Assembly: GCF_024502345.1 (NCBI RefSeq)
Contig: NZ_JALDNN010000003.1
Direction: 5' to 3' (one strand)
Origin: Escherichia coli
Lineage (GTDB): Bacteria > Pseudomonadota > Gammaproteobacteria > Enterobacterales > Enterobacteriaceae
DNA: 64,000 nt
Every line of letters starts with the position of its first letter. Position 1 is the first letter of the stretch. The position numbers and the translations under genes are program-made. Below, piece after piece: positions 1 to 21,626 of the stretch. The notes beneath the pieces are model-generated. The model ran no database searches and had not been told where the DNA came from. It was given only the letters and a program-made list of their open reading frames with translations.

Positions 1-2
1 AA

Positions 3-528
3 AAGCAGCAGTACCGAGCCATTTGGCTGCAAGCACTGGCTAATCACGGTGGAGCCAAGGCAGCCAGGCAAGACGGAGCAGGGGCATGTTACGCCTGGCT
101 CTATCGTCATGACCGACACTGGCTGATGGTTGCGAACCAGGTCAGGCAGCGCCGACAGGGCAACAACAGCCACATCGACTGGCGAGCGCGTGACATAAGG
201 TTGGTGCGCCTGCTGATCCGGATTGGTAGAGGTAGCGAAGAAGACCTGGGCCTTCCGCGCAGGAGTCGCAACTGGTTCCTGCAGCAGCTACCCCATCGGG
301 CATCAGTCGAGCACCGTCTCGATCAATTGCCTCTTTGCTGCACCTTCCTGGATCGCTATGCCGAGTCCGTCGGCGAGTATCAGATCCGTCGCCTGACTGC
401 AGCGATGCTGAAGGATGTACAGACAGGCATAACGTCTAGGCGCTGGGAGCTGGAAAAGCGTTGTGGATTGGAAAAAAGCAGGGTGGCACCACTGACCACT
501 GCGTTCATTCGATTGATAGGAAGATGGA

Positions 529-536
<8 letters not shown>
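3..536 (+). CDS. hypothetical protein, C-terminal part (gene begins upstream of the window)
   Basis: Frame is open from the first bases of the window to TAG at 534-536; no family recognised from the translation. Confidence 0.3.
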
Positions 537-2420
<1,884 letters not shown>

Positions 2421-2604
2421 GTGGCAGTTCGTGGATGCCGTTTCCCGGGTGCACGCGATCCGAGACCACGCGATCAAGCAGGAAAACAAGCACCTGGGCT
2501 TGCCTGACTGACCGCAGGCCGGCGACGACAAGGTGGAAAAGTTCGGCGTGTGGCTCTGGCGGCAACGATCCCGCGAAGGGCGGACGGTGCTTGAGCTGTT
2601 GAAC

Positions 2605-3007
2605 GTAAGCGTGCGGGCAGACCGTCTTGCGCGACTATGCCGGATGCCACCTATGCGGCAGCAGCTCTGCAATCTCACTCGCCCGCTGCGTCGGCAACCG
2701 TGTCAGCACATCCTTGAGATAGGCATACGGATCGTGCCCATTATTACGGGCCGACTGGATCAAACTCATGATCGCAGCAGCGCACTTGAGCATGCGATCC
2801 CGCGCCGAGCATTTGAGAAGGCAACGGGATGAACGCTGGCTGGATAGCCGTGGTTTTCTGGGTATGCAGCCGAATCCATTTGTGGACGAGGTTGGCATTG
2901 AGGCTGTAGCCCAAGGCGATGTTTGCGATGGAGGCACCGGGTTCAGAACACTCCTGAATGACCTGGGCCTTGAAAGATTTGCTGTAGGTACGGCGCTGAG
3001 GGGGCAT
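2605..3007 (-). mobile_element. Internally deleted IS66-family remnant (orfA-like N-terminus plus TnpC C-terminal tail and one terminal repeat)
   Basis: Minus-strand translations: ...RRTYSKSFKAQVIQECSEPGASIANIALGYSLNANLVHKWIR (orfA-like, 2744-3007) and ...SARNNGHDPYAYLKDVLTRLPTQRASEIAELLPHRW (matches C-terminus of the intact IS66-family TnpC at 39863-41455); GTAAGCGTG at 2605 lies 30 bp past the TnpC-tail stop, the same spacing as in the intact copy. Confidence 0.5.
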
Positions 3008-3447
3008 GGAAAATCCGCTTGATGGGCCATGGCCTTCGGCGGCGGTGTCGGGAAGGTGTGTTGGCAGGACGGATACTGTTGAACTACGTTGTCTGGGGCA
3101 ACGGAGGTTTTTCGGCCCGACTCTGGAACGCGATCCGCAGCGACGACTGGGCAATTCCGCACATTGGCCTGAGCAGCCTCGGGGAAATCGTCGGCTGGGC
3201 GCGCCCAGACGAGTTTCCGCCAAGGAACATGCGCACGAGCAAGGGGCTGCGGGCGCTCGGTTACAACGTGAGGATCGGTGTTTGATCTGCGGCCGTGGGC
3301 GGCGCCCGCAAGGTCCCGATCAACCCACCGTCCCCTGCGCCGGACCGGCCCGCCCTGGCATACCGTCCTTGAAGATTTGAGTCACATCAATCGGCCAGCA
3401 GATCGCTGGATGTTGACTCTTGACTTTTGGCATATTAGGCGCAATAT

Positions 3448-3465
3448 CTTGCAAAGTCTTGCAAG
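3448..3465. promoter_or_regulatory. Tandem palindromic TTGCAA hexamers upstream of the HTH regulator gene (candidate operator)
   Basis: cTTGCAAagtcTTGCAAg about 50 bp upstream of the regulator start; TTGACT -35-like hexamers at 3410-3424. Confidence 0.25.
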
Positions 3466-3512
3466 AACTTCCTCAGGCGAGGCCGCGTGACGACGGAACT
3501 TGTGGGGGTGGT

Positions 3513-3794
3513 ATGACAGCGCGCCAGCAGGCGATCTTCACACTCGACGAGTTGGCTACCTACTTAAAGGTCGGCAAGCGGACGCTCTACCGGCTCGCCG
3601 CGCACGGGGAGATTCCGGCCTTCAAGGTCGGCGGGACGTGGCGGTTTCGTCAAAGTGAAATCGATCGATGGATCAATGATCAGATCCAAGCAGGCAGAAA
3701 GAAGGAGGTGATACGTACAGATGAGCAGCCGAAGTCAGCGAAACATCCCGTGTTGCCTGGGCGCGCTATCCATAGCCGCAGGCAAACGGAGTGA
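3513..3794 (+). CDS. Excisionase/MerR-like helix-turn-helix DNA-binding protein (first gene of the heat-resistance locus)
   Basis: MTARQQAIFTLDELATYLKVGKRTLYRLAAHGEIPAFKVGGTWRFRQSEIDRWI is a typical excisionase-family HTH; GGTGG upstream of the ATG. Confidence 0.75.
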   Translation: MTARQQAIFTLDELATYLKVGKRTLYRLAAHGEIPAFKVGGTWRFRQSEIDRWINDQIQAGRKKEVIRTDEQPKSAKHPVLPGRAIHSRRQTE

Positions 3795-3829
3795 GCGAGA
3801 GTCTTCAATTTTTGTTCTGGAGGTGTGAC

Positions 3830-4399
3830 ATGGACATTGATTTCAAGAAGTTGGCTCCCTGGAACTGGTTCAAGAAGGAGCAGGAAGAACAACAGAGCAC
3901 TGCCTCGCTGCCGGTGCAGCGCAATGACCTGCCGGTAGCGGGTGGGCCCGTCAGTCCCATCCTGCAATTGCACCGCGAGATCGACCGCCTCTTCGACGAC
4001 ACGTTTCGAGGCTTCGGCTTTCCGGCGCTGGCCATGCCACGCTGGCCGTCGGACTGGCCGGGCCTGCTGAAGCCGGCGCTGGACATCCAGGAGACCGACA
4101 AGCAGTACAAGATTTCTTTGGAGGTTCCCGGCGTCGAGGAAAAAGACATCCATATCACGCTCGACAACGACGTGCTGCTGGTTCGCGGTGAAAAGCGTCA
4201 GGAGCAGGAAAGCAAAGACGGCGGTTTCCACCGGGTGGAGCGCTCCTACGGCAGCTTTCAGCGCGCTCTGAACCTGCCGACCGATGCCAACCAGGACACG
4301 ATCAAGGCCGCTTTCAAGAACGGCGTACTCACGATCACAATGGAAAAGCGCGAGGCCAGTGCGCCCAAGCAGGGCCGCTCGATCCCGATCAACGGCTGA
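3830..4399 (+). CDS. hsp20: Small heat-shock protein, Hsp20 family (alpha-crystallin domain)
   Basis: GGAGG RBS 6 nt before ATG; translation has the alpha-crystallin core (DIQETDKQYKISLEVPGVEEKDIHITLDNDVLLVRGEK...GVLTITMEK). Confidence 0.9.
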   Translation: MDIDFKKLAPWNWFKKEQEEQQSTASLPVQRNDLPVAGGPVSPILQLHREIDRLFDDTFRGFGFPALAMPRWPSDWPGLLKPALDIQETDKQYKISLEVPGVEEKDIHITLDNDVLLVRGEKRQEQESKDGGFHRVERSYGSFQRALNLPTDANQDTIKAAFKNGVLTITMEKREASAPKQGRSIPING

Positions 4400-4440
4400 C
4401 GCCGATCGGCTTGTTCTCTACAGAAAAACCAAGTGAATGG

Positions 4441-4467
4441 CGAGGCGCCGTGACCTTCGGCGCCTCG
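4441..4467 (+). other. Perfect 10-bp stem-loop between hsp20 and clpK (possible attenuator or processing site)
   Basis: CGAGGCGCCG-tgacctt-CGGCGCCTCG, 30 bp upstream of the clpK RBS. Confidence 0.4.
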
Positions 4468-4496
4468 TCAAATCAGTCCTCTCAAGGAGCATGAGC

Positions 4497-7346
4497 ATGG
4501 CCAGAAAACAATGCCAGGTCTGCGGCCAGCCCGCCACGGTGCGGGTGGAAGCCAATCTCAATGGTCGCCACAGCACCATGCTGTTGTGTGACGATCACTA
4601 TCGCCAACTGGCGCGCCAGCAAAAGCGCACCGTCTCGCCGCTGGAAGCCTTGTTTGGCTCGCGCAGCGGCTTGTTCGAAGACTTCCTCGGCAGCGACTTC
4701 TTCCGCATCGGTGACGATTCGCCGTCCATGGCGGCCGATACCGACGAGGTGGTCGATGCCTCGTTCGGCGAACCCGCCCCGGCCGGTACGGGCACTGCGC
4801 GCCGTCGCGGCAGTGGGCTCGCCAGCCGTATCAGCGAACAGTCCGAGGCCCTATTGCAGGAGGCCGCCCGACACGCTGCAGAGTTCGGGCGCGCCGAAGT
4901 CGATACCGAACACCTGCTGCTGGCGCTATCCGACAGCGACGTGGTGAAGACCATCCTGGGACAGTTCAAGATCAAGGTCGATGACCTCAAGCGACAGATC
5001 GAATCCGAAGCCAAGCGCGGCGAGAAGCCGTTCGAGGGCGAAGTCGGCGTGTCGCCCCGGGTCAAGGACGCGCTCAGCCGCGCTTTCGTGGCCTCCAACG
5101 AACTCGGCCACTCTTATGTCGGGCCGGAGCATTTCCTGATCGGGCTCGCTGAGGAAGGCGAAGGTTTGGCGGCCAACCTGCTGCGCCGTTACGGCCTCAC
5201 GCCGCAAGCGCTGCGCCAGCAGGTAAGCAAGGTGGTCGGCAAAGGGGCCGAGGATGGCCGCGCCGAGACGCCGACCAACACGCCCGAGCTGGATAAATAC
5301 TCGCGCGACCTCACCAAGATGGCGCGCGAGGGCAAACTCGATCCAGTCATCGGCCGTGCGCAGGAGATCGAGACCACCATCGAGGTGCTGGCCCGGCGCA
5401 AGAAAAACAACCCGGTGTTGATCGGTGAGCCCGGCGTCGGCAAGACCGCCATTGTCGAAGGGCTGGCGCAGCGCATGGTCGCCGGTGAAGTGCCCGAGAC
5501 GCTGCGCGACAAGCGTCTGGTCGAGCTCAACATCAACGCCATGGTGGCAGGCGCCAAGTATCGCGGCGAGTTCGAGGAGCGCGTGCAGAAGGTGCTCAAG
5601 GAAGTGACCGAGCACCAGGGCGAGATGATTCTCTTCATCGATGAAGTGCACACCATCGTCGGTGCAGGCCAGGGTGGCGGCGAAGGCGGGCTGGACGTGG
5701 CCAACGTGTTCAAGCCGATGATGGCGCGCGGCGAACTGAACCTGATCGGCGCCACCACGCTCAACGAGTATCAGAAGTACATCGAGAAGGACGCCGCGCT
5801 GGAGCGTCGTTTCCAGCCGGTGATGGTGCCCGAGCCGACGGTAGCGCAGACCATGATGATCCTGCGCGGCCTGCGCGACACCTTCGAGGCGCACCACAAG
5901 GTCAGCATCACCGAGGATGCGATCATCGCCGCCGCCGAGTTGTCGGACCGCTACATCACCGCGCGCTTTTTGCCTGACAAGGCCATCGACCTGCTTGACC
6001 AGGCGGCCGCACGCGTGAAGCTGTCGGCCACGGCTCGCCCGGTGGCGGTGCAGGAGCTGGAGTCCGAACTGCACCAGTTGCGGCGTGAGCAGGACTACAT
6101 GGCCTCGCGCAAGCAGTACGACAAGGCCGCCGAGCTGGGCAAGCGCATCGAGGCCAAGGAGACTGAACTCAAGCAGCTCGTCGAGGAATGGGAACGCGAG
6201 CGCGCCTCGGGCAGCGCCGAAGTCAAGGCCGAGCATGTCGCGCAGATCGTCTCGCGCCTGACCGGCATTCCGGTCAACGAGCTGACGGTGGAAGAACGCG
6301 AGAAGCTGCTGCATCTGGAGCAGCGGCTGCATGAGCGCCTGGTGGGCCAGGACGAAGCGGTGCGCGCGGTGGCCGATGCCGTGCGGTTGTCGCGCGCGGG
6401 CCTGCGCGAAGGCGACAAGCCGGTGGCGACTTTCCTGTTCCTTGGGCCGACCGGCGTGGGCAAGACCGAGCTCGCCAAGGCGCTGGCCGAGTCCATCTAT
6501 GGCGATGAAGGTGCGCTGCTGCGCATCGACATGTCCGAGTACGGGGAACGCCATGCCGTGGCACGCCTGGTGGGCGCGCCTCCGGGTTATGTGGGCTATG
6601 ACGAGGGCGGCCAGCTCACCGAGAAGGTGCGTCGCAAGCCCTACAGCGTGTTGCTGCTCGATGAGATCGAAAAAGCGCACCCCGACGTCTACAACATCCT
6701 GCTGCAGGTGTTCGACGACGGGCGGCTCACCGACGGCAAGGGCCGGGTGGTGGATTTCACCAATACCATCATCATCGCCACCTCGAACCTGGGCTCGGAC
6801 ATCATCCAGCGTCGGCTGAAGGCCGGTGGCGCCGCCGGCGAGGAATACGAGAAGACCAAGTCCGAGGTGATGGACGTGCTGCGCGGACACTTCCGCCCCG
6901 AGTTCATCAACCGCATCGACGAGATCATCGTCTTCCATGCGCTGGGCAAGGAGGAAATCCGCCATATCGTCGGCCTGCAGCTTGATCGTGTGGCCCGCAA
7001 CGCCGCCAGCCAGGGCGTGACGCTGACCTTCGATCAGACCTTGATCGACCACTTCGCGGAGGAAGGCTACAAGCCCGAGTTCGGCGCGCGTGAGCTCAAG
7101 CGGCTGATCCGCAGCGAGCTGGAAACCGCGCTGGCGCGCGAGATGCTGGGTGGCGGTATCGGCAAGGGTGATCACGCCAACGCCCGCTGGGACGACAAGG
7201 CCGAACGGGTGGTCTTCGAGCGCCAGGAGCCACCCGCGAAGTCGGCTGAGCCTGAAAAGCCCGATGCCGCGGACGTGGCCGAGGCACCGCCTGGCGACGC
7301 GAGCAAGCCTGCGCGCAAGAAGAAGTCAGCGGATGGCGAATCTTGA
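4497..7346 (+). CDS. clpK: ClpK/ClpG-type Clp ATPase disaggregase with N-terminal zinc-finger extension
   Basis: AAGGAG RBS; N-terminus [38 protein letters not shown] (Cys4 motif) followed by two AAA+ modules ([13 protein letters not shown]...; [19 protein letters not shown]...) as in ClpB/ClpK. Confidence 0.9.
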
Positions 7347-8793
7347 GCGATGGGAGGCTGTCGTGTCCGACCCCAATGGGCTGACATGGGCAGCCACCCT
7401 CGTGTCGCTGGCGGTCGCTATCCCCACAGCGGGGCATGCGGTCATCTACAAGCGTGACCCTCGATCGGCCACGCTGTGGGTACTGCTGATCGCCTTGCTG
7501 CCGCTGGGCGGTTCGCTGCTGTATGGGCTGTTCGGCATCAACCGTTACCAGCGGCGGGCGCGGCGGCTCTTCCCGGGGGCAGATCCTGCTGTTCGGCAGG
7601 ATCTCTCGCCCACGATACCCGAGGCTGTATCGCCGCCACTTGCCGGTCTGGCCCACCTGGTGGGACGCGCCACCGGCCAGTCGCTGACCGGCGGCAACCG
7701 CATCGAGCCGCTTGTCGATGGCGAGCAGGCCTACCCGGCCATGCTCGCCGCCATCGAATCGGCGCGGTACAGCGTCGCCTTGACCTCGTACATCTTCGAC
7801 AGCCAAGGTATCGGGGCGCAGTTCGTCGATGCGCTGCGCCGGGCTCATGAGCGCGGCGTGCAAGTGCGGGTGCTGATCGACGACGTGTATGCCCGCTGGA
7901 CGCCCCGCAGCGCCTACCGCGCCTTGCAGCGCGCCGGCGTTCCGGCGGCGACGTTCAACCCTACATTGATTCCCGCGCGCCTGCATGCCGCGCATCTGCG
8001 CAATCACCGCAAGCTGCTGGTGATCGATGGCGAGACGGGTTTCACCGGCGGATTGAACATCTTCAGCCCGTACTGGCGGCCCGATGCGCCGGACCAGGCC
8101 TGTCACGATTTGCACTTTCGTCTGCGCGGGCCGGTGATTGCGCATCTGATGCGGTGCTTCACCGATGATTGGTGCGATACCACGGGCGAGCGGCTCAGCA
8201 AGGGTTACTGGGGCGAACCGCCCGTAACGGCTGATGAGCAAGGAACCTCTTGGGCGCGCGGCATCGAGGCCGGTCCCGATGAGGCCCTGGACCGGATGCG
8301 CTGGACCTTCATGGGCGCTTTGAGCGCCGCGAAGCATTCGGTGCGCATCTGGACACCTTACTTCGTCCCCGATCAGCCGATGATCGCGGCGCTAAGCACG
8401 GCCGCGTTGCGCGGCGTGCGTATCGACGTGCTGACGCCCGCAAACGGCGACCATCCCACGGTGCAATGGGCCGCGCGCGCCCACTACTGGCAGGTGCTGG
8501 AGCACGGTGTGCGCATCTTCGAACGGCCTGGCCCGTTCGACCACAGCAAGCTGATGCTGGTAGACGGAGCGTGGTGCTGCCTGGGTTCGGCCAATTGGGA
8601 TGCACGCAGTTTGCGCCTCAACTTCGAGTTCAATGTGGAGGTGTACGACACCGCGTTGTCTACGCGGCTGTCATCCCTTTTTGATGCCGCTCGTGATGCG
8701 TCGGGCGAGATATCGGCGAAGGCGTTGCGCGCCCGCCCGCTGGCCATCCGCTTGCGCGACGGGGTGGCCCGTCTGTTCACCCCCATTCTCTAG
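7333..8793 (+). CDS. cls: Cardiolipin synthase / phospholipase-D family protein (two HKD motifs)
   Basis: ATG overlaps the clpK stop; HKD motifs HLRNHRKLLVIDGETGFTGGLN and FDHSKLMLVDGAWCCLGSANWD; N-terminal hydrophobic segment. Confidence 0.8.
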   Translation: MANLERWEAVVSDPNGLTWAATLVSLAVAIPTAGHAVIYKRDPRSATLWVLLIALLPLGGSLLYGLFGINRYQRRARRLFPGADPAVRQDLSPTIPEAVSPPLAGLAHLVGRATGQSLTGGNRIEPLVDGEQAYPAMLAAIESARYSVALTSYIFDSQGIGAQFVDALRRAHERGVQVRVLIDDVYARWTPRSAYRALQRAGVPAATFNPTLIPARLHAAHLRNHRKLLVIDGETGFTGGLNIFSPYWRPDAPDQACHDLHFRLRGPVIAHLMRCFTDDWCDTTGERLSKGYWGEPPVTADEQGTSWARGIEAGPDEALDRMRWTFMGALSAAKHSVRIWTPYFVPDQPMIAALSTAALRGVRIDVLTPANGDHPTVQWAARAHYWQVLEHGVRIFERPGPFDHSKLMLVDGAWCCLGSANWDARSLRLNFEFNVEVYDTALSTRLSSLFDAARDASGEISAKALRARPLAIRLRDGVARLFTPIL

Positions 8794-8820
8794 CGACACG
8801 ACTTGCGAGGAACATTGCCC

Positions 8821-10650
8821 ATGGAAAAGAAAGATCAATGGAACATAGGCTACTGGATCGTCGCCGGCCTGTTGCTGCTGACGCTGCAGAACTACTGGCA
8901 GGCGGCCAAGACCGTCGAGCCCGTGCCCTACAGCGAATTCGAGAAGGCGCTGGCCGAGGGGCGCGTCGCCGAAGTGCTGGTGTCGGACCGCACGGTCACC
9001 GGGCACCTGAAATCGCCGGACAGCCGGGGCAAGACCACCATCGTGGCCACCCGTGTCGAACCCGACCTGGCCGAGCGGCTGTCCAAGTACGACGTGCCCT
9101 ATGCGCGGGTGGTGGAAAGCACCTGGCTGCGTGATGTGCTCTCCTGGATTCTGCCGGCGGTGGCCTTCTTCGGCGTCTGGTTCTTCCTGTTCCGCCGCTT
9201 CGCCGAGAAGCAGGGCATGGGTGGCTTCCTGAGCATCGGCAAGAGCCGTGCCAAGGTATTCATGGAGAAGAACACTGGCGTGACCTTTGCCGATGTCGCT
9301 GGCGTCGATGAAGCCAAGGCGGAGTTGGTTGAGATCGTCGATTTCCTCAAGAATCCGCAGGAGTATGGACGGCTCGGGGCGCGCATTCCCAAGGGCGTGT
9401 TGCTGGTCGGCCCACCGGGCACCGGCAAGACATTGCTGGCCAAGGCTGTTGCCGGCGAGGCGGCGGTGCCCTTCTTCTCCATCTCCGGATCAGAGTTTGT
9501 CGAGATGTTCGTCGGCGTGGGTGCAGCGCGCGTGCGCGACCTGTTCGAGCAGGCCCGCGGGCAGGCGCCGGCCATCATCTTCATCGACGAGCTCGATGCG
9601 CTGGGCCGCGCGCGCGGCGTCGGCGGCCCCATCGGCGGCCACGACGAGCGCGAGCAGACCCTCAACCAGCTGCTCACGGAGATGGACGGCTTCGACAGCT
9701 CGGTCGGGCTGATCATCCTCGCCGCCACCAACCGCCCCGAAATCCTCGACCAGGCGCTGCTGCGCGCCGGTCGCTTCGACCGTCAGGTGCTGGTGGACCG
9801 GCCCGACAAGAAGGGACGGCTGGACATCCTGAAAGTCCACGTCAAGAAGGTGACGCTGGCTCAGGATATCGATCTCGAACAGGTGGCTGCGCTGACCACG
9901 GGCTTTTCGGGTGCAGACCTCGCGAACCTGGTCAACGAGGCCGCGCTGGCCGCGACCCGGCGCAAAGCGTCCGCCGTGGAGTTGCAGGATTTCACCGCCG
10001 CCATCGAGCGCATCGTGGCGGGCCTGGAGAAGAAGAACCGCGTGCTCAATCCCAAGGAGCGGGAAACCGTGGCCTATCACGAGATGGGCCATGCGCTGGT
10101 GGCGCTGGCGCTGCCCGGCACCGACCCCGTGCACAAGATCTCGATCATCCCGCGCGGCATCGGCGCGCTGGGCTACACGCTGCAACGCCCCACCGAAGAC
10201 CGCTTCCTGATGACGCGCGCCGATCTGGAACACAAGATCGCCGTGCTGCTGGGCGGTCGTGCGGCCGAGAAGCTCGTGTTCGGCGAGCTGTCCACCGGGG
10301 CTGCCGATGACCTCGCACGGGCCACCGACATTGCCCGCGACATGATCACCCGCTTTGGCATGGACGAAGGACTGGGCTACATCGCCTTCGAGGCGCAGCG
10401 GCCACGCTTTCTCGATACACCGGAACTGGCCCACGGCGGCTGCCGGGTGGCCGAATCGACCCAGGCGCGCATCGATCAGGCCATCCGCGACATCGTGATG
10501 GGCGTGTTCGAGCGCGCCTACCGGATCCTCGACACCAACCGCGCGGTGCTGGAGCGTTGTGCGCGCGAACTGCTGGCGCGGGAAACGCTCGACGAGAACG
10601 ACATCCTTCAATTGACCCAAGGACTTGTTCTAGATAGAAACGAAAAGTAG
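8821..10650 (+). CDS. ftsH: FtsH-family ATP-dependent zinc metalloprotease
   Basis: N-terminal TM helices, AAA module ([26 protein letters not shown]), zinc site HEMGHALVA. Confidence 0.9.
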
Positions 10651-10728
10651 TAGGCGCTATTCAGAGTGAGCCGGCGGCTCTGTTCGGTGCGTCATCCAAT
10701 TCGCCGGCATTGTTCAAGGAGAACCGAT

Positions 10729-11187
10729 ATGTCTGCATTGACTCCGTGGGACCCCTTCCGGGAACTGGATGAATTGCAAAACCGCCTGGCGACGATGTTG
10801 GGACGGACACCCCAGCGACAGGGCGCCCGTACCGGCAACGAAGCCCTGACCACGGCGGACTGGGCACCAATGGTGGACATCAGCGAGGATGAGAACGCAT
10901 TCCTCCTCAAGCTGGATCTGCCGGAGGTCCCCAAGGATGCCGTGCGCGTCAGCGCGGAAAACGGCGTGCTCACCATCAGCGGCGAGCGCAAACTGGAAAA
11001 AGAGGAGCAGGGCAAGAAATTCCACCGCATCGAACGTGCGTATGGCCGCTTTGTGCGCAGCTTTGTCTTACCTGACAACGTTGATCCGACCAAGGTGACG
11101 GCTTCGATGAAAGACGGCGTGCTGGAAGTGCGGCTTGTCAAGGCCGAGCAAGCCAAGCCGAAGCAGATTGAAATTTCAGTCAATTAA
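10729..11187 (+). CDS. Small heat-shock protein (Hsp20/IbpA-like)
   Basis: AGGAGA RBS; alpha-crystallin domain (DISEDENAFLLKLDLPEVPKDAVRVSAENGVLTISGERK). Confidence 0.9.
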   Translation: MSALTPWDPFRELDELQNRLATMLGRTPQRQGARTGNEALTTADWAPMVDISEDENAFLLKLDLPEVPKDAVRVSAENGVLTISGERKLEKEEQGKKFHRIERAYGRFVRSFVLPDNVDPTKVTASMKDGVLEVRLVKAEQAKPKQIEISVN

Positions 11188-11208
11188 CTTCAATTGGAGT
11201 CCAACATC

Positions 11209-12117
11209 ATGAATATCAAACAGCCCCAATACATCCGTTCCGCACTTGCCCTGGCGGTCTGCATCGGACTGAGTGGACCGGTTTTGGCCCAATCGGCGGC
11301 AAGTCCAAGCGCTGCAGCGCCCTCTGTCGCACCCAAGGCGGCGCAGCCACAAGTAGACGACAAGGCCGCCCAGGAAGCCGAAAAAAAGCGTTCCGAGCTC
11401 ACTCAGGACGCCATCACGGCGCTCACCAAGACCCAGGAGGCTTTGACCCTCCTTGATGCAAATAAGACCAAGGAGGCGCTCGCTGCGCTGGAACTGGCCA
11501 CCGGAAAGCTGGAACTGGTATTGGCACGCGACGCCAAACTTGCTTTGGCGCCGGTCGATGTACGCGTCATCACCCATGATATCCACGCCAACGTGGAATC
11601 GGTAAAGAAAGCGGTCAAGTTGTCTCGGGAGTTGTTGGGTGATGGCGAGGTGCAAAAGGCCCGGCCCATCGTTGCCAATCTGGCCAGCGAAATCGTGATC
11701 GAAACCGACAACCTGCCCATGGCAACGTACCCGGCAGCGATCAAGTCGGCTGCACGGCTCGTCGACAGCGGCAAGATCGACGAAGCCAAAGCAGAGCTCG
11801 CCCGAGCACTGAACACGCTGGTGGTCACCCAAGTTGTACTCCCTCTGCCCGTGCTACGGGCCGAAGCCGCGATAGCAAAAGCTGAAAAGCTGGCCGAGAC
11901 TGACAAGCGCGATGCCAAGCAGAACGAGGAGCTCAGCACCTTGCTGTCGTCCGTGCGCACGGAGATCGAGCTGGCGCAAATCCTGGGTTATGGCAAGAAG
12001 GAGGACTTCAAACCCATCTTCGATCAGGTGAAGTCCATTGAGCAAAAGTCGGCTGGTGGCAAAAGCGGCAATGGATGGTTCGACGAGTTGAAGACGCGCA
12101 TCCAAAAGCTGTTTTGA
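11209..12117 (+). CDS. yfdX: YfdX-family periplasmic protein (copy 1)
   Basis: Signal-peptide-like N-terminus (MNIKQPQYIRSALALAVCIGLSGPVLAQSA); repeat architecture shared with the next ORF. Confidence 0.75.
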   Translation: MNIKQPQYIRSALALAVCIGLSGPVLAQSAASPSAAAPSVAPKAAQPQVDDKAAQEAEKKRSELTQDAITALTKTQEALTLLDANKTKEALAALELATGKLELVLARDAKLALAPVDVRVITHDIHANVESVKKAVKLSRELLGDGEVQKARPIVANLASEIVIETDNLPMATYPAAIKSAARLVDSGKIDEAKAELARALNTLVVTQVVLPLPVLRAEAAIAKAEKLAETDKRDAKQNEELSTLLSSVRTEIELAQILGYGKKEDFKPIFDQVKSIEQKSAGGKSGNGWFDELKTRIQKLF

Positions 12118-12219
12118 GGTGATGAAGGGGCCGACTGCTCCATCGGTCAGTCTCGCGATATTCGCAGTCGGCCCCAATAGATTCCCCTATTTTCACTATC
12201 TCATACGAGGCATATCACC

Positions 12220-13107
12220 ATGAATGAGCAAACATCGAATCCCAACGCGATCAACGAAGGCACGAACGAACAGGCCGCGGTAAGCAGCCTTCCTGCCAGA
12301 CCAGAGCCCAAGCCTGAAGTCGTCACGGAGGTACAGCCTGAGGTTCAGAAGGAAACGGACTCGCAGGCGGCAGACAAACGTAAACAAGTCCTCGATGAGG
12401 CCGTCTCGGCCTTGGCGCTGACCAAATCAGCGCTGGCGGCCCTGGACGAAAAAGAATCCGCGCGAGCACTGGCAACGCTGGCCGAAGTGACGGGAAAGCT
12501 GGAGCTGATCGTTGCACGCGAACCCACGCTCGCCCTGGCCCCCGTTGATGTGCGCACCATCGTGCACGACTTGTTCGCCAACACGGAAACCATTGAGGCG
12601 ATGACCGACGAGGCGCTGGATGCCCTCAAACATGGCGAGGTGCAACAGGCTCGCCACGTGCTGGCTTTGCTGGCCAGTGAAATCGTGATCACGGTCACCA
12701 ACATCCCTCTGGCGTCCTATCCCGCAGCCGTGAAGGCAGTCGTGCCGCTGATCGATCAGGGCAAGATCGAAGAAGCCAAAGCCGCGCTGCAGTCAGCGCT
12801 CAGCACGCTGGTCGAGGAGCGCAGCGTGCTTCCGCTGCCCGTCCTGCGTGCGAAGCTGCTCCTGAAGCGCGCCGAGCCTCTGGTAGAAGATGGTCAGCGC
12901 AGCGAAGCATCCAATGAGCGCCTGGAGACATTGTTGAACGAAGCCCGGCAGCAGTTGGAAATGGCAGAACTGCTGGGCTATGGAAAAAGGAAGGACTTTG
13001 AGCCCCTGTACGCTGAACTCAAGAAAATCAAGGAAAAGACGGGAGGGGGAGGCTTCGGAAAAGGCTGGCTCGATGAAGTCAAGGCAAAACTGTCCAGGTT
13101 GTTCTGA
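12220..13107 (+). CDS. yfdX: YfdX-family protein (copy 2)
   Basis: Paralogous to the preceding ORF (shared ...GKLELxxAR(D/E)xxLALAPVDVRxIxHD...LLGYGKxxDFxP...). Confidence 0.75.
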   Translation: MNEQTSNPNAINEGTNEQAAVSSLPARPEPKPEVVTEVQPEVQKETDSQAADKRKQVLDEAVSALALTKSALAALDEKESARALATLAEVTGKLELIVAREPTLALAPVDVRTIVHDLFANTETIEAMTDEALDALKHGEVQQARHVLALLASEIVITVTNIPLASYPAAVKAVVPLIDQGKIEEAKAALQSALSTLVEERSVLPLPVLRAKLLLKRAEPLVEDGQRSEASNERLETLLNEARQQLEMAELLGYGKRKDFEPLYAELKKIKEKTGGGGFGKGWLDEVKAKLSRLF

Positions 13108-13115
13108 AACCGCTG

Positions 13116-13142
13116 GAGAGGGGGCGCATAGTGCCCCCTCTC
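13116..13142 (+). terminator. Stem-loop downstream of yfdX copy 2 (candidate terminator)
   Basis: GAGAGGGGGC-gcatagt-GCCCCCTCTC perfect 10-bp stem; T-rich tract follows only after about 20 nt. Confidence 0.45.
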
Positions 13143-13196
13143 TTGTCCCATGAGTGTTTGATTTTTTATTTTGTATAGATCTTTAGGAGATATTGC

Positions 13197-13808
13197 ATGA
13201 ACACAGACACCATCACCGATTCCAGTGCGGATGACCCCACCAAAGCACTGTGTTCGCTTAGCCAAAATTGGTGGCTTTTTGTGCTGCGCGGTGTCTTGGC
13301 ATTGATTTTTGCAGCCCTCGCGTTCTGGATGCCACAATCGGCTCTGTTGGCCATGACCATCATGTTCGGCGCATTTTCCTTGGTCAATGGCGCGTTCAAC
13401 TTGTTTGCAGCGGTGCGCCATATCCAGAAAAAAGAGCGCTGGGGCTGGTTGTTGTTCAGCGGCATTGTCGGCATACTTACGGGCGTCGTCGTCCTGGTTG
13501 CTCCTTGGGTCGCCACGATAGTCCTGGCTTCTTTTTTATGGGCTAGCGTGGGCTTCTGGGCGATTTTCACCGGTGTGCTGGAGATATCTGCCGCCGTTCG
13601 GCTGCGTCGGGAAATCAAGGGTGAAATCTGGCTTGCCCTCAGTGGACTGCTCTCGATTATCCTTGGTGCTATCGTCTTGTGGATATTTTTTACCCGCCCG
13701 GTCGAGTCATTCGTGGCCGCAGGCTGGCTGTTGGGTTTCCATGCGGCAGTCTATGGCGTCACGCTTTTGTTCTTGAGTTGGAGTCTTCGCAAAACGCGCC
13801 AGGGGTAA
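13197..13808 (+). CDS. hdeD: HdeD-family acid-resistance membrane protein
   Basis: Six hydrophobic segments; HdeD-like N-terminus (NWWLFVLRGVLALIFAALAF...). Confidence 0.8.
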   Translation: MNTDTITDSSADDPTKALCSLSQNWWLFVLRGVLALIFAALAFWMPQSALLAMTIMFGAFSLVNGAFNLFAAVRHIQKKERWGWLLFSGIVGILTGVVVLVAPWVATIVLASFLWASVGFWAIFTGVLEISAAVRLRREIKGEIWLALSGLLSIILGAIVLWIFFTRPVESFVAAGWLLGFHAAVYGVTLLFLSWSLRKTRQG

Positions 13809-13887
13809 GAGCGTGCCAAACCAAAATCTATGGATATGAGCATCCTCGATTCATGCCTCCATAGAAATGACATCGAAGGAGTCATAC

Positions 13888-14562
13888 ATGCAGATACAAT
13901 ATAGCTATCGAGCTATCGACAAAGAGTTTCATGAACCTTGGCAGAGAGCTTTGGGAAATGTGATCGAGCACGCCCTCAAGCCATTGCTCGACAAACACAC
14001 TAAAGATTCAGCGCGACTTCAAATCGTCCTTGATCGCGACAAGATCAAGCGGCAATTTCTGGCCAGTGGCTATATGCACCTGCCCGGCAAAAAGATTGTC
14101 AGTGTTACTGCATCACATGACGAGCTGACGCCCCTCGCGCAGATGCTCGCAAAGTCGTTGTTCCGTCAGGCCAAGAAGCATTTTGACCGACTGCATGCTC
14201 AGGATCAAATCAAGCGCAAAGCACGACGCGAGCGCTTGCGCGAGCTCAAGGTGCGGATTGCCGCAAAACCCGCATCAGCCGCCCATGAGGCCGAGGTGAT
14301 CCGAATGCCTCTACTGTCGAAACTTGAGGCTGTCGCAAGGCGTGAGCTGGCTTATCTGCGGGCCGTCGGCGATTTACCGCGCGATTATCCGACGCTGCGC
14401 GACGTGGTGGATGAAGCGATTGTCCAAGCTGAGGTGGAATGGCAATCCGTGCCGGAAGAAAAAGCGGTTCGGTATAAGACATGGGGGCAGCACCGTACCG
14501 GAAAGGTCAGGTGTTGCACTCAGTTTTTGCCGCCGCCAAGCATCAACCAGATAATCCGATGA
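13888..14562 (+). CDS. hypothetical protein (225 aa, basic/helical)
   Basis: AAGGAG RBS 6 nt upstream of ATG; no recognisable motif. Confidence 0.5.
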   Translation: MQIQYSYRAIDKEFHEPWQRALGNVIEHALKPLLDKHTKDSARLQIVLDRDKIKRQFLASGYMHLPGKKIVSVTASHDELTPLAQMLAKSLFRQAKKHFDRLHAQDQIKRKARRERLRELKVRIAAKPASAAHEAEVIRMPLLSKLEAVARRELAYLRAVGDLPRDYPTLRDVVDEAIVQAEVEWQSVPEEKAVRYKTWGQHRTGKVRCCTQFLPPPSINQIIR

Positions 14563-14645
14563 GATGCCGGTCTGTCTCACTCTCATGCAAAGGTAAGATC
14601 AACCATTTAATCCGCTTACCCCAGAATAATAGGGAGTGCATATAA

Positions 14646-15557
14646 ATGCATTTTTTGAATTTGCAGGTCACACAGGCAGAGCTCCTATCCGGCCTTATTT
14701 CCGTTTCCCAAACAGTTGCACAGATTGTGCTCGTCATGACCGTGGCGTGGCTCGTGTCCGCAGTGCTTTCGCGGGCCATCACACGCATCAGCAAAAGAAC
14801 CCGCACTTCCAAGAGATCTGCAGATGAGGTCAAACGCATTGAAACATCTCTTCGTCTGATCCGTTTCGTCAGTCGGCTGGTCGTGTGGGCCTTGGCCGTG
14901 ACCATTTCCCTCTCAATCCTTGGCATTTCTGTGGCACCGATCCTGACGACTGCGGGGGTAAGCGGCATCGCAGTGGGGTTTGCTGCGCAGAGCCTGATAA
15001 AAGACTATTTTTCGGGTTTGGTCTTGTTGCTGGAAGGGCAACTCCGCATCGGGGATATCGTGGATATTGGCGGTGTGGCAGGCCAAGTCGAAGAGATGAC
15101 GTTGCGCTATGTGCGCCTGCGTCAACTCAATGGTGACGTGGTCTATGTGCCCAACGGAGCCATCACCAATCTGACAAATAAGACAACGGACTATTCGATG
15201 GCCGTAATCGATGTCGGTGTCGCCTATCGCGAAAACCTTCAGGAGGCATTGAACGTTATGGAGAGTGTCGCCCGTGAGCTAGCTTCGGAAACAACCTGGT
15301 CAACGAGAATATTAGCCGAGCCAGAGGTCTTTGGGGTCGAAACGTTGGGTGACTCTTCGGTTATCCTGCGTCTTCGCCTCAAGGTCTTGCCAGGTGAGCA
15401 ATGGTCAATCCGGCGCGAATATCTGCACAGGATAAAACAGCGCTTCGACGAACTTGGCATCGAAATCCCTTATCCGCATCTGACGCTTTATGCCGGCCAG
15501 GACAAGGATGGAAAAGCCCCTGCCTTTCGGATCGAAGCTCCGGCTGGTGCCCAATGA
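14646..15557 (+). CDS. MscS-family mechanosensitive ion channel
   Basis: Three N-terminal TM helices and the conserved MscS core (GIAVGFAAQSLIKDYFSGLVLLLEGQLRIGDIVDIGGVAGQVEEMTLRYVRL). Confidence 0.8.
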   Translation: MHFLNLQVTQAELLSGLISVSQTVAQIVLVMTVAWLVSAVLSRAITRISKRTRTSKRSADEVKRIETSLRLIRFVSRLVVWALAVTISLSILGISVAPILTTAGVSGIAVGFAAQSLIKDYFSGLVLLLEGQLRIGDIVDIGGVAGQVEEMTLRYVRLRQLNGDVVYVPNGAITNLTNKTTDYSMAVIDVGVAYRENLQEALNVMESVARELASETTWSTRILAEPEVFGVETLGDSSVILRLRLKVLPGEQWSIRREYLHRIKQRFDELGIEIPYPHLTLYAGQDKDGKAPAFRIEAPAGAQ

Positions 15558-15568
15558 CACGGCCAAAA

Positions 15569-16388
15569 GGCACTGTTGCAAATAGTCGGTGGTGATAAAC
15601 TTATCATCCCCTTTTGCTGATGGAGCTGCACATGAACCCATTCAAAGGCCGGCATTTTCAGCGTGACATCATTCTGTGGGCCGTACGCTGGTACTGCAAA
15701 TACGGCATCAGTTACCGTGAGCTGCAGGAGATGCTGGCTGAACGCGGAGTGAATGTCGATCACTCCACGATTTACCGCTGGGTTCAGCGTTATGCGCCTG
15801 AAATGGAAAAACGGCTGCGCTGGTACTGGCGTAACCCTTCCGATCTTTGCCCGTGGCACATGGATGAAACCTACGTGAAGGTCAATGGCCGCTGGGCGTA
15901 TCTGTACCGGGCCGTCGACAGCCGGGGCCGCACTGTCGATTTTTATCTCTCCTCCCGTCGTAACAGCAAAGCTGCATACCGGTTTCTGGGTAAAATCCTC
16001 AACAACGTGAAGAAGTGGCAGATCCCGCGATTCATCAACACGGATAAAGCGCCCGCCTATGGTCGCGCGCTTGCTCTGCTCAAACGCGAAGGCCGGTGCC
16101 CGTCTGACGTTGAACACCGACAGATTAAGTACCGGAACAACGTGATTGAATGCGATCATGGCAAACTGAAACGGATAATCGGCGCCACGCTGGGATTTAA
16201 ATCCATGAAGACGGCTTACGCCACCATCAAAGGTATTGAGGTGATGCGTGCACTACGCAAAGGCCAGGCCTCAGCATTTTATTATGGTGATCCCCTGGGC
16301 GAAATGCGCCTGGTAAGCAGAGTTTTTGAAATGTAAGGCCTTTGAATAAGACAAAAGGCTGCCTCATCGCTAACTTTGCAACAGTGCC
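15569..16388 (+). mobile_element. IS26 (IS6 family), copy 1, intact 820 bp
   Basis: 14-bp terminal inverted repeats GGCACTGTTGCAAA at 15569 and TTTGCAACAGTGCC ending 16388; canonical tnpA inside; flanking 8 bp differ (no direct target duplication). Confidence 0.95.
15632..16336 (+). CDS. tnpA: IS26 transposase Tnp26
   Basis: MNPFKGRHFQRDIILWAVRWYCKYGISYRELQEMLAERGVNVDHSTIYRWVQRYAPEME..., 234 aa. Confidence 0.95.
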   Translation: MNPFKGRHFQRDIILWAVRWYCKYGISYRELQEMLAERGVNVDHSTIYRWVQRYAPEMEKRLRWYWRNPSDLCPWHMDETYVKVNGRWAYLYRAVDSRGRTVDFYLSSRRNSKAAYRFLGKILNNVKKWQIPRFINTDKAPAYGRALALLKREGRCPSDVEHRQIKYRNNVIECDHGKLKRIIGATLGFKSMKTAYATIKGIEVMRALRKGQASAFYYGDPLGEMRLVSRVFEM

Positions 16389-16709
16389 GAAGAAACAACC
16401 GCGTACTGGATGATTACCCCACCAAAAGGGAAAATATTAGGCGTTGTCAAAGGGAAACCTGCGTGGGTTGATATTCCTCCGCCAACACAGGAAGAGCTGA
16501 TCCAGGTCGCTGAGCGTGAGAAAAAGCGACTAATTAATGTGGCTAACGACTTCATTAATAGTAAACAATGGCCTGGTAAAGCGGCAATCAAACGACTGAA
16601 AGACAATGAACTGGTGCAATACAATCTGTGGCTTGATTATCTTGATTACCTTGAATCAACAGACGCATCAACAGCACCTGATATTGACTGGCCTGAGATG
16701 CCAATATAG
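16389..16709 (+). pseudogene. Phage tail-fibre assembly protein (Tfa), C-terminal fragment truncated by IS26
   Basis: Frame is open from the IS26 boundary; C-terminus ...LWLDYLDYLESTDASTAPDIDWPEMPI resembles Tfa C-termini. Confidence 0.6.
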
Positions 16710-16819
16710 GAACCTTTTGTGGATTGAGATTTTTAATGTCAGCGAAGCTCTTCGTCAAAAGTGAAACTCTGATAACCTGGTTCTACTGACGAACAGAAGG
16801 ATAAGCAGGAGATCGCTTT

Positions 16820-17380
16820 ATGATTATTGGGTATGCACGAGTATCAAGTAACCATCAGGACACCGAGCTTCAGATGCAGGCGCTCAGAGCTGCTGGCTGT
16901 AAGTTAATTTTTGAGGAAAAGGCTTCTGGCCGTAAGACGAACCGACCAATTTTGAAGAAAGTGGTTGAGATGCTTGAACCCGGTGACGAGCTGGTCATCT
17001 GGAAGCTGGATCGTATCGGTCGCAATGTGCTGCACGCATTATTGACGTTTCAGAGCCTCGCAGAACGCAATGTTAACATCCGTTCTATTACTGATGGCGT
17101 TGACCTGAGTACCGCCAGTGGGCGCTATAACTTCCGTAATATTCTCTCTGCGGCACAATATGAGTCTGATCTGAATAGTGAACGCACTTTGGCGGGGTTA
17201 GCGGTTGCCCGCGCTAAGGGGAGGATTGGCGGACGTAAGCCTAAGTTCACTAATGAGCACTGGGATGCGTTTGAACGGGAAATTAAGTCCGGCTGCTCAC
17301 ATCGTGATATAGCTCTCAAATATGGAGTCGGCCTGTCGACTCTCTACAAACGTTATCCGGCTCAGCAAGAGCATCAGTAA
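16820..17380 (+). CDS. Serine recombinase, DNA-invertase type (Hin/Gin/Pin/Cin-like)
   Basis: MIIGYARVSSNHQDTELQ... with catalytic Ser near the N-terminus and C-terminal HTH (GVGLSTLYKRYPA); position after a tfa fragment matches phage invertible-segment layout. Confidence 0.85.
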   Translation: MIIGYARVSSNHQDTELQMQALRAAGCKLIFEEKASGRKTNRPILKKVVEMLEPGDELVIWKLDRIGRNVLHALLTFQSLAERNVNIRSITDGVDLSTASGRYNFRNILSAAQYESDLNSERTLAGLAVARAKGRIGGRKPKFTNEHWDAFEREIKSGCSHRDIALKYGVGLSTLYKRYPAQQEHQ

Positions 17381-17622
17381 ACACTCTTTGCGTTCATTTT
17401 TGCACTGTGCAGAATGTGTCTTTTTGGCACCTTCCGACAGTGCAAAATTTATCGCGTTTTTGTGCAAAAAAAATCGCCGCGCTACAAAACGTGTGCTATA
17501 CTTGTGCTCATGCGGTTGGATTTCCTATCCCCCCGACCCGCGCTGCGGCGGGCCGAAAAATCCCAGGGATGGGTTTTTTCGGTGTTTTCCTCGTTGGCAC
17601 ATTCAAGAGTAAGGAGCGTTCC

Positions 17623-18231
17623 ATGAAGCTGTATTACACCCCCGGCGCCTGTTCCATGGCCCCGCACATCGCCCTGCGCGAAGCCGGCCTGAAATTCGAC
17701 CTGGAAAAGGTCGACCTGATGACCAAGAAAACCGAATCGGGCGCCGACTTCACCGCCATCAATCCCAAAGGCTACGTGCCGGCGCTGCAGCTCGACAACG
17801 GCCAGGTGCTGACCGAGGTCGGCGTGGTGCTGCAATACATCGCCGACCAGAAGCCGGGCAGCGGACTGGCCCCGGCCGCCGGCACGCTCGAGCGCTACCG
17901 CCTGATGGAGATGCTGAATTTCATCTCCACCGAGCTGCACAAGAACTTCGGTCCGCTGTTCAACCCGGCGGCCGGCGACGACGCCAAGAAAGCAGCCATC
18001 GAGATGATCGGCAAGCGCCTTGGCTACCTCGACCAGCAGCTGGCCGGCAAGCAGTATCTGCTCGGTGACACCTTCACGGTGGCCGACTGCTACCTCGCCA
18101 CCATGCTCGGCTGGTGCCAGTACGCCAAGCTCGACCTGTCGGCCTGGCCGAACATCGGCGCTTACGCCGGCCGCGTGATGAGCCGCCCGGCGGTGATCGA
18201 GACGATGAAGGCCGAAGGCCTGATGGGCTGA
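17623..18231 (+). CDS. Glutathione S-transferase
   Basis: AAGGAG RBS; MKLYYTPGACSMAPHIALREAGL... typical GST N-terminal thioredoxin-like fold; about 67% GC. Confidence 0.8.
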   Translation: MKLYYTPGACSMAPHIALREAGLKFDLEKVDLMTKKTESGADFTAINPKGYVPALQLDNGQVLTEVGVVLQYIADQKPGSGLAPAAGTLERYRLMEMLNFISTELHKNFGPLFNPAAGDDAKKAAIEMIGKRLGYLDQQLAGKQYLLGDTFTVADCYLATMLGWCQYAKLDLSAWPNIGAYAGRVMSRPAVIETMKAEGLMG

Positions 18232-21625: not shown

Positions 21626-21626
21626 C

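Follow-up and report, generated by a model that had tools for sequence, protein, structure and literature searches.

Sequence analysis of a tLST2/LHR2 locus truncated by IS26 in Escherichia coli

Known tLST variants and their relation to the present locus

Insertion of orfC and orfD in the middle of orf11 is the architecture that defines tLST2/LHR2 within the tLST/LHR family, orf11 being disrupted in all tLST2 (Boll 2017, PMC5383660; the architecture is also given in PMC8290217). Judged by alignment to reference loci and by domain matches, the locus at nt 3513–15557 (plus strand) of the 64-kb stretch of E. coli DNA analysed here (the window) is a tLST2/LHR2 as described by Boll 2017, and the tLST/LHR-type identity proposed in the initial annotation was borne out. 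The tLST2/LHR2 references, namely pFAM21805 (KY416992) of E. coli FAM21805, NZ_CP061749, and CP016838 of S. Senftenberg ATCC 43845, shared with the window the gene order from orf1 to orfC at 99.5% to 99.8% DNA identity, intact cls (orfA) and ftsH, an orf11 broken at the same base by orfC-orfD, and tnsABCDE upstream, but they continue from orfD through degP, whereas the window has IS26 there instead.

tLST3b (NZ_CP061755, IncHI1A plasmid of E. coli 873.10) was 99.89% identical over window nt 1–14467 and has the same plasmid family and Tn7-like carrier, the ends and 5-bp duplication of which are definable in that record; it differs from the window in possessing an intact orf11, no orfC-orfD insert, a complete distal module, and a full-length PAS-GGDEF gene. 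tLST1/LHR1 (E. coli AW1.7 type, e.g., the chromosome of 0H24) shares the three-module plan, with orthologous proteins 71% to 97.5% identical, but its cls is a remnant, its ftsH is shorter, orf11 is intact, the oxidative-stress module is complete, and orfC and orfD are both absent. A partial form, tLSTt ('truncated tLST', Kamal et al. 2021), resembles the window locus in keeping orf1, sHsp20, and ClpK. In tLSTt, part of the diguanylate cyclase together with orf14 and orf15 is kept and the envelope module is missing (PMC8290217), a pattern opposite to that of the window locus, which keeps the envelope module and loses the oxidative-stress module.

Organization of the locus

Window nt 1–15568 aligned collinearly with the tLST2 reference NZ_CP061749 at 99.49% identity, and nt 3743–15568 matched pFAM21805 at 99.84%. 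The features are given below in window coordinates, fractions of aa being residues identical to the tLST2 reference.

1–536, plus strand: 3′ end of tnsD (the window starts inside the gene), collinear with annotated TnsD-family genes in 0H24 and LR890350.1
529–2151, plus strand: tnsE (Pfam TnsE_C, 5.5e-44; annotated TnsE in related records)
2744–3007, minus strand: left border of the island, transposase remnant (same annotated position in other tLST records)
3022–3285, plus strand: left border of the island, small hypothetical protein (same annotated position in other tLST records)
3513–3794, plus strand: orf1, HTH (excisionase/MerR-like) DNA-binding protein (HTH_17, 1.2e-17; 93/93 aa)
3830–4399, plus strand: sHsp20, holdase partner of ClpK (HSP20, 2.1e-28; 189/189 aa)
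4497–7346, plus strand: clpK (clpK2 type), stand-alone AAA+ disaggregase (949/949 aa)
7363–8793, plus strand: cls (orfA), cardiolipin synthase, intact (TIGR04265, 291.8 bits, cut-off 290; two PLD domains; 472/476 aa)
8821–10650, plus strand: ftsH-GI, full-length membrane AAA+ zinc protease (TIGR01241, 779 bits, cut-off 600; 609/609 aa)
10729–11187, plus strand: hsp20-GI (sHSP-GI) (HSP20, 1.5e-26; 152/152 aa)
11209–12117, plus strand: yfdX1 (pscA), periplasmic stress chaperone (Pfam YfdX, 1.3e-33; 302/302 aa)
12220–13107, plus strand: yfdX2 (pscB) (Pfam YfdX, 6.3e-40; 295/295 aa)
13197–13808, plus strand: hdeD-GI, inner-membrane protein (DUF308, 6.1e-24; 203/203 aa)
13888–14562, plus strand: disrupted orf11, hypothetical ORF (224 aa from ATG 13888; 231 aa from ATG 13867)
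14468–15568, plus strand: kept part of the orfC-orfD insert, 1,101 of 1,962 bp (boundaries by alignment of the tLST2 and tLST3b references)
14646–15557, plus strand: orfC, MscS-family mechanosensitive channel (MS_channel_1st, _2nd, and _3rd; 303/303 aa)
15569–16388, plus strand: IS26, end of the island (tnp26 at 15632–16336; DDE_Tnp_IS240, 2.5e-48)

Domain searches and protein comparison thus reproduced the gene order and coordinates of the initial annotation, except that the locus start had been placed at nt 3400 and the regulator orf1 begins at nt 3513. The core triad of the family, orf1, sHsp20, and ClpK/ClpG-GI, was present in canonical order (HTH_17, HSP20, NCBIfam ClpK); ClpK scored 2152.9 bits against NCBIfam heat_AAA_ClpK (NF033606; cut-off 1900) and possessed Clp_N, two AAA modules, and the ClpB D2-small domain. 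Between clpK and sHsp20-GI lay, as in tLST2, an undisrupted gene for cardiolipin synthase (orfA) and a full-length ftsH, followed by a complete cell-envelope module of sHsp20-GI, YfdX1, YfdX2, and HdeD-GI (Pfam HSP20, two YfdX, and DUF308; annotated likewise in identical records). The ten intact proteins of the locus all matched the tLST2 reference, Cls with 472/476 aa. The locus covered 12,056 of the 19,259 bp from orf1 to degP of the tLST2 reference (62.6%, at 99.5% identity) and missed the threshold of the screen by Li et al. 2025, which sets minima of 90% identity and 80% coverage relative to a reference tLST variant; it would fall in the '>30% but <80%' coverage class of that screen.

Disruption of orf11 and loss of the distal module

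Only codons 1–192 of the 381 codons of orf11 were found, at window nt 13888–14463, after which the frame enters foreign sequence and stops at nt 14562; in tblastn, full-length orf11 matched the window at 98.4% over aa 1–192 only, and collinearity with loci having an intact orf11 stopped at nt 14464–14467. The counterpart in RefSeq is annotated as a pseudogene 'missing C-terminus'. The ORF of 225 aa previously listed as a hypothetical gene is no separate gene, consisting of the N-terminal 192 aa of orf11 plus foreign sequence. In tLST2 the orfC-orfD insert is 1,962 bp, as delimited by aligning the tLST2 and tLST3b references; the retained part had a GC content of 52.8%, versus 61.6% in the remaining island. 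Both orfC and the insertion point in orf11 were the same as in the tLST2 reference, and orfD and the distal insert junction had been removed by IS26. By sequence comparison, a hypothetical protein and an MscS channel after hdeD is the standard tLST2 layout and no new extension. This content had been taken as a possible variant feature; tLST2 references have the same content, which had been named beforehand as a refuting observation and applies to this part alone, and what does set the window apart is that the references go on to orfD, trx, kefB, and beyond, absent here.

Neither blastn nor tblastn detected orfD, trx, kefB, psiE, htpX, degP, or the GGDEF gene (orfE, between kefB and orf14 in tLST2) in the 64-kb window. 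Of the oxidative-stress module (orf11, Trx-GI, KefB-GI, PsiE/orf14, HtpX-like orf15, and DegP-GI), only orf11 codons 1–192 were left. The truncation removed orfD, the second half of orf11, the genes for Trx-GI, a KefB-like K+/H+ antiporter, GGDEF orfE, PsiE, HtpX-like orf15, and DegP, and also the Tn7-like transposon's right end. The absence of the distal thioredoxin/KefB/DegP module from a locus stopping at IS26 had been noticed initially and was confirmed; the distal genes did not lie directly past IS26 in either the window or the closest complete plasmid, and both these genes and the Tn7 right end were absent from the complete relative LR890350.1 (300,631 bp). As to whether they occur elsewhere in the genome, they were missing from the window and LR890350.1, and a second tLST copy supplies them in most genomes with the same junction (see below).

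The IS26 boundary

The IS26 at nt 15569 is 820 bp long, with a single DDE transposase and perfect 14-bp inverted repeats (GGCACTGTTGCAAA), and is separated from the orfC stop by 11 bp. No 8-bp target duplication was present at this IS26, the flanks being GGCCAAAA and GAAGAAAC, and none of the three IS26 copies compared within the window, which holds at least 3, had matching flanks. Since an IS26 without an 8-bp target duplication points to deletion or exchange rather than simple insertion, an IS26-mediated deletion or IS26-to-IS26 exchange would have ended the island 11 bp past the orfC stop. The arrangement resembles IS26 adjacent deletions and pseudo-compound transposons in having an intact IS26 without the 8-bp duplication, several direct copies nearby, and a constant left junction with interchangeable right flanks, but differs in that neither donor configuration nor reciprocal junction was found here. 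In strain 0H24, tnsA is truncated by a second IS26, so that the island there lies between direct copies of IS26; the sequence to the right of IS26 in that strain matched none of the tLST neighbourhoods compared.

The Tn7-like carrier

The presence of tnsD and tnsE upstream of the genes initially reported placed the island within a Tn7-like transposon. These two genes adjoin the cargo and are collinear with the annotated tnsA-E of related records, and the left border (nt 2744–3285) is conserved in 0H24, pECO-6357, the tLST2 and tLST3b references, and chromosomal tLST1. In a complete relative, L007, the element has its ends at nt 3409 and 30341; the TGTGGG...CCCACA termini carry TnsB-type sites in repeated form, the 5-bp target ACGTC is duplicated, and the cargo consists of the island alone. 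The left end for the present locus lies upstream of the window, and no Tn7-like right end was found in the window, in all of LR890350.1, or in 92 kb of VREC0864. The truncated element would have lost the ability to move as a Tn7-like unit and would spread with the plasmid, or via IS26 and homologous recombination.

Predicted phenotype

A tLST/LHR is expected to provide chlorine tolerance and survival at 60 °C. In tLST1, knockouts of sHsp20, clpK, sHsp-GI, pscA, pscB, and hdeD lowered heat and chlorine resistance and that of kefB reduced chlorine resistance alone, while orf11, trx, orf14, orf15, and degP were not among the genes whose knockout reduced either (PMC8407380). The present locus retains the protein-homeostasis module intact (orf1, sHsp20, ClpK disaggregase, Cls, and FtsH) and the envelope module whole (sHsp20-GI, YfdX1/PscA, YfdX2/PscB, and HdeD-GI), along with the MscS-like orfC; sHsp20 would hold aggregates, ClpK would resolve them, and YfdX and HdeD would guard the envelope, giving higher heat and pressure resistance. 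By analogy with the tLST1 knockouts, it is reasonable to predict that the truncated tLST2 keeps heat resistance and loses KefB-dependent chlorine protection, which would be expected absent unless a second tLST provides it, as in most sequenced carriers. Retention of heat resistance is not certain, because isolates with a truncated LHR showed no more than moderate heat resistance and cloned sub-fragments conferred none (Mercer 2015, PMC4563881).

Distribution and origin of the truncated copy

The same orfC|IS26 junction recurred in at least 12 complete E. coli records, closed independently and comprising both plasmids and chromosomes, and three different sequences flanked it on the right. Truncation of tLST2 by IS26 is real. 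Our main reading, held with a probability of roughly 0.85, is that the window carries an IS26-truncated tLST2 as cargo of a Tn7-like tnsABCDE transposon in an IncHI1A-type plasmid background, with the losses and retained modules described above. tLST2 is a known heat- and stress-resistance island, and the form cut by IS26 is an ordinary derivative that had been sequenced before and no new system.

It seems unlikely that the truncated copy is a decaying redundant remnant, tolerated thanks to a complete tLST elsewhere and contributing little or nothing. Such a view is consistent with the only moderate resistance of truncated-LHR isolates (PMC4563881) and with the occurrence of a second tLST with distal genes in at least 9 of the 12 genomes having the junction (tLST1 is co-resident in the 0H strains and ECONIH5), but these 12 genomes represent only about 3–4 lineages and the co-occurrence is statistically weak. 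Moreover, each of the ten retained genes is intact and encodes a reference-identical or reference-like protein in isolates from Canada, USA, and Australia, and strains with LHR1 and LHR2 outlived LHR1-only strains under heat (PMC5383660), which indicates that resistance can be raised by an additional set of proteostasis and envelope genes.

IS26 repeats often break or mis-join assemblies, and with at least three copies in the window the IS26 end could be suspected to be a collapsed repeat in an island that is complete in the source genome. Recurrence of the junction in 12 closed records of both plasmid and chromosome, absence of the reciprocal IS26|orfD junction among 5,426 complete E. coli genomes, and the lack of any distal gene or Tn7 right end in complete LR890350.1 make such an artefact very improbable. 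A native, complete variant ending at the MscS channel, as its unchanged recurrence in several genomes and a post-hdeD content unlike the reference loci cited in the initial annotation might suggest, is hardly tenable and is contradicted by the broken orf11 (192/381 codons), the insert cut at 1,101/1,962 bp, the IS26 abutting orfC at 11 bp without target duplication, the lost right end of the carrier, and the continuation of reference loci at 99.5% to 99.8% identity through orfD to degP.

Implications

The IS26-truncated tLST2 illustrates how IS26 strands and rearranges a Tn7-borne stress island on large plasmids of the IncHI1A type; such plasmids circulate in E. coli of food plants, wastewater, and hospitals. 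A tentative and rather doubtful possibility is that it is not debris, having been selected as a 'heat-only' auxiliary cassette that combines an MscS channel with a divergent second set of proteostasis and envelope genes. If so, ClpK2, sHsp20, full-length FtsH, Cls, YfdX1/2, and HdeD would be kept and the costly oxidative-stress module shed; the cassette would spread on IncHI1A plasmids and by plasmid-chromosome recombination among 'naturalized' ST399-type E. coli with a complete tLST, adding to the heat tolerance of these strains in meat plants, wastewater, and hospitals.

The understanding of the tLST mechanism is unchanged by the truncated locus, its main value lying in screening practice. 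By clpK2 PCR or an AMRFinder-type gene call the replicon would be scored tLST2/LHR2-positive although one-third of the island is missing, kefB with it, whereas screens demanding at least 80% coverage would drop the locus altogether; thus, heat and chlorine tolerance are not predictable from marker genes alone.

Gene content of the locus

Family searches located eleven reading frames on the + strand at nt 3513–15557, in the order proposed in the initial annotation, from an HTH regulator to an MscS-like channel, with the IS26 end where it had been placed; the start of the regulator was corrected to nt 3513. IS26 started 11 bases past the MscS stop codon.

Features of the locus and the adjoining insertion sequence (reading frames from family searches; IS26 from its terminal repeats)
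3513–3794, +, HTH_17 DNA-binding protein
3830–4399, +, Hsp20 (first)
4497–7346, +, ClpK (NCBIfam ClpK, 2152.9 bits; cut-off 1900)
7363–8793, +, cardiolipin synthase
8821–10650, +, FtsH, full-length
10729–11187, +, Hsp20 (second)
11209–12117, +, YfdX protein 1
12220–13107, +, YfdX protein 2
13197–13808, +, DUF308/HdeD protein
13888–14562, +, ORF without a family match
14646–15557, +, MscS-family channel
15569–16388, + (transposase strand), IS26, 820 bp, with perfect 14-bp terminal repeats

The 3 promoter-like and 14 terminator-like sites predicted in nt 2900–15700 did not exceed the numbers in shuffled sequences, and an Rfam scan of nt 2000–16500 at E ≤ 1 had no match, either to an RNA thermometer or to any other known RNA.

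Identity with tLST2

In a megablast search against plasmids, several E. coli plasmids of ~300 kb matched the whole region at 100% identity, with the RefSeq gene names clpK, cls, ftsH, hsp20-GI, yfdX1, yfdX2, and hdeD-GI. Nucleotides 3743–15568 shared 99.84% identity with the published LHR2 plasmid pFAM21805, and nt 1–15568 were collinear (99.49%) with NZ_CP061749, the tLST2 reference of later surveys, in agreement with the initial assignment to the tLST/LHR type. Nine of the 10 intact proteins were identical to those of the tLST2 reference, the exception being Cls (472/476). tLST2 is already well described, and the exact sequence has been deposited and annotated many times.

LHR2 is distinguished from LHR1 by four additional ORFs, orfA (cardiolipin synthase), orfC (mechanosensitive channel), orfD, and orfE (GGDEF) (Boll et al. 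2017, PMC5383660). Full-length orf11 (381 aa) could be aligned to the window over its first 192 residues only, and collinearity with loci carrying an intact orf11 ended at nt 14464–14467; in the reference, a foreign insert of 1,962 bp substitutes for 3 bp of orf11. Because of these two limits, the gene previously listed as a 225-aa hypothetical is, on alignment, a broken orf11 running into the insert; orfC accounts for the MscS-like gene. The two belong to the standard content of tLST2 and make no unusual continuation after hdeD.

The orfC-orfD module of tLST2 (counterpart in the window, nt 14622–15568) shared 99.67% identity over 1,806 bp with nt 13554–15359 of Acinetobacter ursingii plasmid pAURM-1. 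In pAURM-1, the MscS gene comes directly after a second hdeD-family gene, with which it overlaps, and an inverted tLST-like cluster lies alongside. The tLST2 insert may derive from an hdeD-mscS-orfD unit like that of pAURM-1.

Truncation at IS26

In the reference, orfC is followed by orfD, the 3′ part of orf11, trx-GI, a KefB-like antiporter gene, a GGDEF gene, psiE, and genes for HtpX-like M48 and DegP-like S1C proteases, after which comes the right end of the transposon. From orfD to the DegP-like gene, no match was found in the 64-kb window at the DNA or protein level, as had been noted for the thioredoxin, KefB, and DegP genes when the locus was first seen to stop at IS26. The truncation suspected then was also upheld by measurement: 12,056 of the 19,259 bp from orf1 to degP (62.6%) are retained, and the orfC-orfD insert is down to 1,101 bp from 1,962 bp. 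The locus is a simple deletion derivative of tLST2.

No 8-bp target duplication was present at the IS26 that ends the locus (GGCCAAAA versus the first eight bases of GGAAGAAAC, GAAGAAAC), nor at the two further IS26 copies in the window. Absence of the duplication is typical of ends made by IS26-mediated deletion or IS26-to-IS26 exchange and points away from simple insertion. Among the records, the left junction (orfC|IS26) was constant and the right flank variable.

Right flanks of the IS26 that ends the locus
resolvase/GST/GloB: window, and the same in OW968028.1
ferritin/IS5: LR890350.1
truncated IS110: 0H24 and the chromosome of VREC0864

A constant left junction with differing right flanks fits a single founding truncation, after which IS26 would have shuffled the right flank. 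A reciprocal IS26|orfD junction, expected had an IS26 composite entered a complete island, did not occur among 5,426 complete E. coli genomes, where orfC-orfD was uninterrupted in each of the 13 matches. A simple adjacent deletion as the founding event was not demonstrable, as the truncated-IS110 right flank of 0H24 showed no similarity to any tLST neighbourhood compared.

In the 0H24 plasmid CP081775.1 (L015, nt 7554–9028), a second IS26 in direct orientation cuts the 5′ end of tnsA, and the two copies bracket the whole tnsA'-BCDE-tLST2 remnant in a manner resembling a pseudo-compound transposon.

The Tn7-like carrier

Upstream of the locus, the window contained the end of tnsD and a complete tnsE, and in related records a complete tnsABCDE set lies ahead of the island. 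The Tn7-like element of the complete tLST3b reference plasmid has TGTGGGATGCAAATAAAGG at its start, then repeated binding-site-like motifs, and the inverted sequence 26.9 kb on at its end; a 5-bp duplication (ACGTC) flanks it, the insertion site being inside IS1. Because tnsABCDE precedes the island and the element is delimited in the tLST3b plasmid by its ends and the duplication, the island is, on sequence grounds, cargo of a Tn7-like transposon. Such a carrier was previously noted for an LHR-like island of P. aeruginosa (PMC8012707), and Tn7 elements have been mentioned as flanking tLST (PMC8290217).

The left end adjoins four different sequences in four records, which argues that the element has moved repeatedly. 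The left flanks of plasmid and chromosomal copies were unrelated to each other and to every other locus compared. No right end was found in the window, in the entire 300,631 bp of LR890350.1, or in 92 kb of a chromosomal copy; because it is missing, we infer that the truncated element would be unable to transpose by its own machinery.

Between the VREC0864 chromosome (L008, nt 609) and LR890350.1 (nt 68039), the truncated element was 99.97% identical over 22 kb with the same IS26 junction; the unrelated left flanks switch exactly at the Tn7 terminus, and the right end is absent from both. To the right of the element, the VREC0864 chromosome carries the plasmid genes repA, parDE, and parG and many IS26 copies; recombination of a plasmid into a resident Tn7::tLST2 is suggested.

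Neighbouring segments

The best match to the window, LR890350.1, differed at the IS26-bounded nt 16389–21742 and at nt 53388–60556. At nt 16389–22562, a 5.35-kb segment between two direct IS26 copies encodes a resolvase (nt 16820–17380), a glutathione S-transferase, a GloB-like hydroxyacylglutathione hydrolase, and an IS91/ISCR-like Y2 transposase; at the matching position LR890350.1 has a different 5.1-kb segment (ferritin-like, IS5, RelE/ParE). The IS26|resolvase junction is common to the window and the 88.8-kb plasmids OW968028.1 and OW968043.1, and the segment has the look of an IS26 translocatable unit acquired by exchange. The second difference, of ~7.2 kb, comprises a SulP-family transporter gene, arsB, arsH, and an ISNCY transposase gene, with ~96–97% identical DNA in large Klebsiella, Citrobacter, and Enterobacter plasmids.

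An IS26-bounded block (nt 22563–39044) contains a complete citrate-fermentation cluster at ~28748–38186 (citT, citG, citX, citF, citE, citD, citC, and dpiBA, adjoined by uspG, rnk, and rna). The block's identity with the cit locus on the E. coli chromosome is only ~79%, so it probably came from the chromosome of another enterobacterium. The third IS26 copy (nt 39045–42366) is split by an inserted IS66-family element into 789 bp (nt 39045–39833) and the last 40 bp (nt 42327–42366). LR890350.1 carries, outside the window, its own rpoH (sigma-32) gene at nt 51962–52819 (L011, nt 1962–2819), ~25 kb from the heat-resistance island.

Distribution and second tLST copies

The exact orfC|IS26 junction occurred in nine PLSDB plasmids, all from E. 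coli; complete E. coli records with it numbered 12 in all, three of them chromosomes. The carriers were six clonal 0H strains from an Alberta meat plant, ECONIH5, MSB1_9D (Australia), ATCC 98082, VREC0864, AREA_C483, and 1218KP; the 0H and ECONIH strains belong to ST399 'naturalized' E. coli (PMC11169474). The distal module was present on the chromosome in all six 0H strains and ECONIH5, in 0H24 within a complete tLST1, and the chromosomes of AREA_C483 and 1218KP each had, at another site, a second orfC-orfD junction without interruption. Thus, the search for the distal genes elsewhere, advised at the outset, was negative in the 64 kb and positive among the carriers, at least nine of the 12 holding the missing genes in another tLST; few lineages stand behind the 12.

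Predicted function and significance

Going by what is established for these families and for tLST, sHsp20 is a holdase that works with ClpK, a stand-alone disaggregase; membrane proteins and lipids are the targets of FtsH and Cls, and envelope protection falls to YfdX1/2 (PscA/B) and HdeD-GI. In tLST1, single knockouts of sHsp20, clpK, sHsp-GI, pscA, pscB, and hdeD reduced resistance to heat as well as to chlorine, that of kefB lowered chlorine resistance alone, and for orf11, trx, orf14, orf15, and degP no lowering of either was reported (PMC8407380); strains with LHR1 and LHR2 survived heat better than those with LHR1 only (PMC5383660). From these knockout classes and survival data, we predict by analogy that the truncated tLST2 would still raise heat tolerance, alone or additively, and would give no KefB-dependent chlorine protection. 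Against the heat gain, however, heat resistance was no more than moderate in isolates with truncated LHR, and none was conferred by cloned sub-fragments (Mercer 2015, PMC4563881).

Partial tLSTs are a recognised class, with 385 genomes at 30–80% coverage (Li et al. 2025); a literature search with tLST plus IS26 and with the record accessions returned no paper naming this IS26-truncated derivative. The locus is a caveat for marker-based screening of tLST and an apparent case of a Tn7-borne island stranded by IS26.
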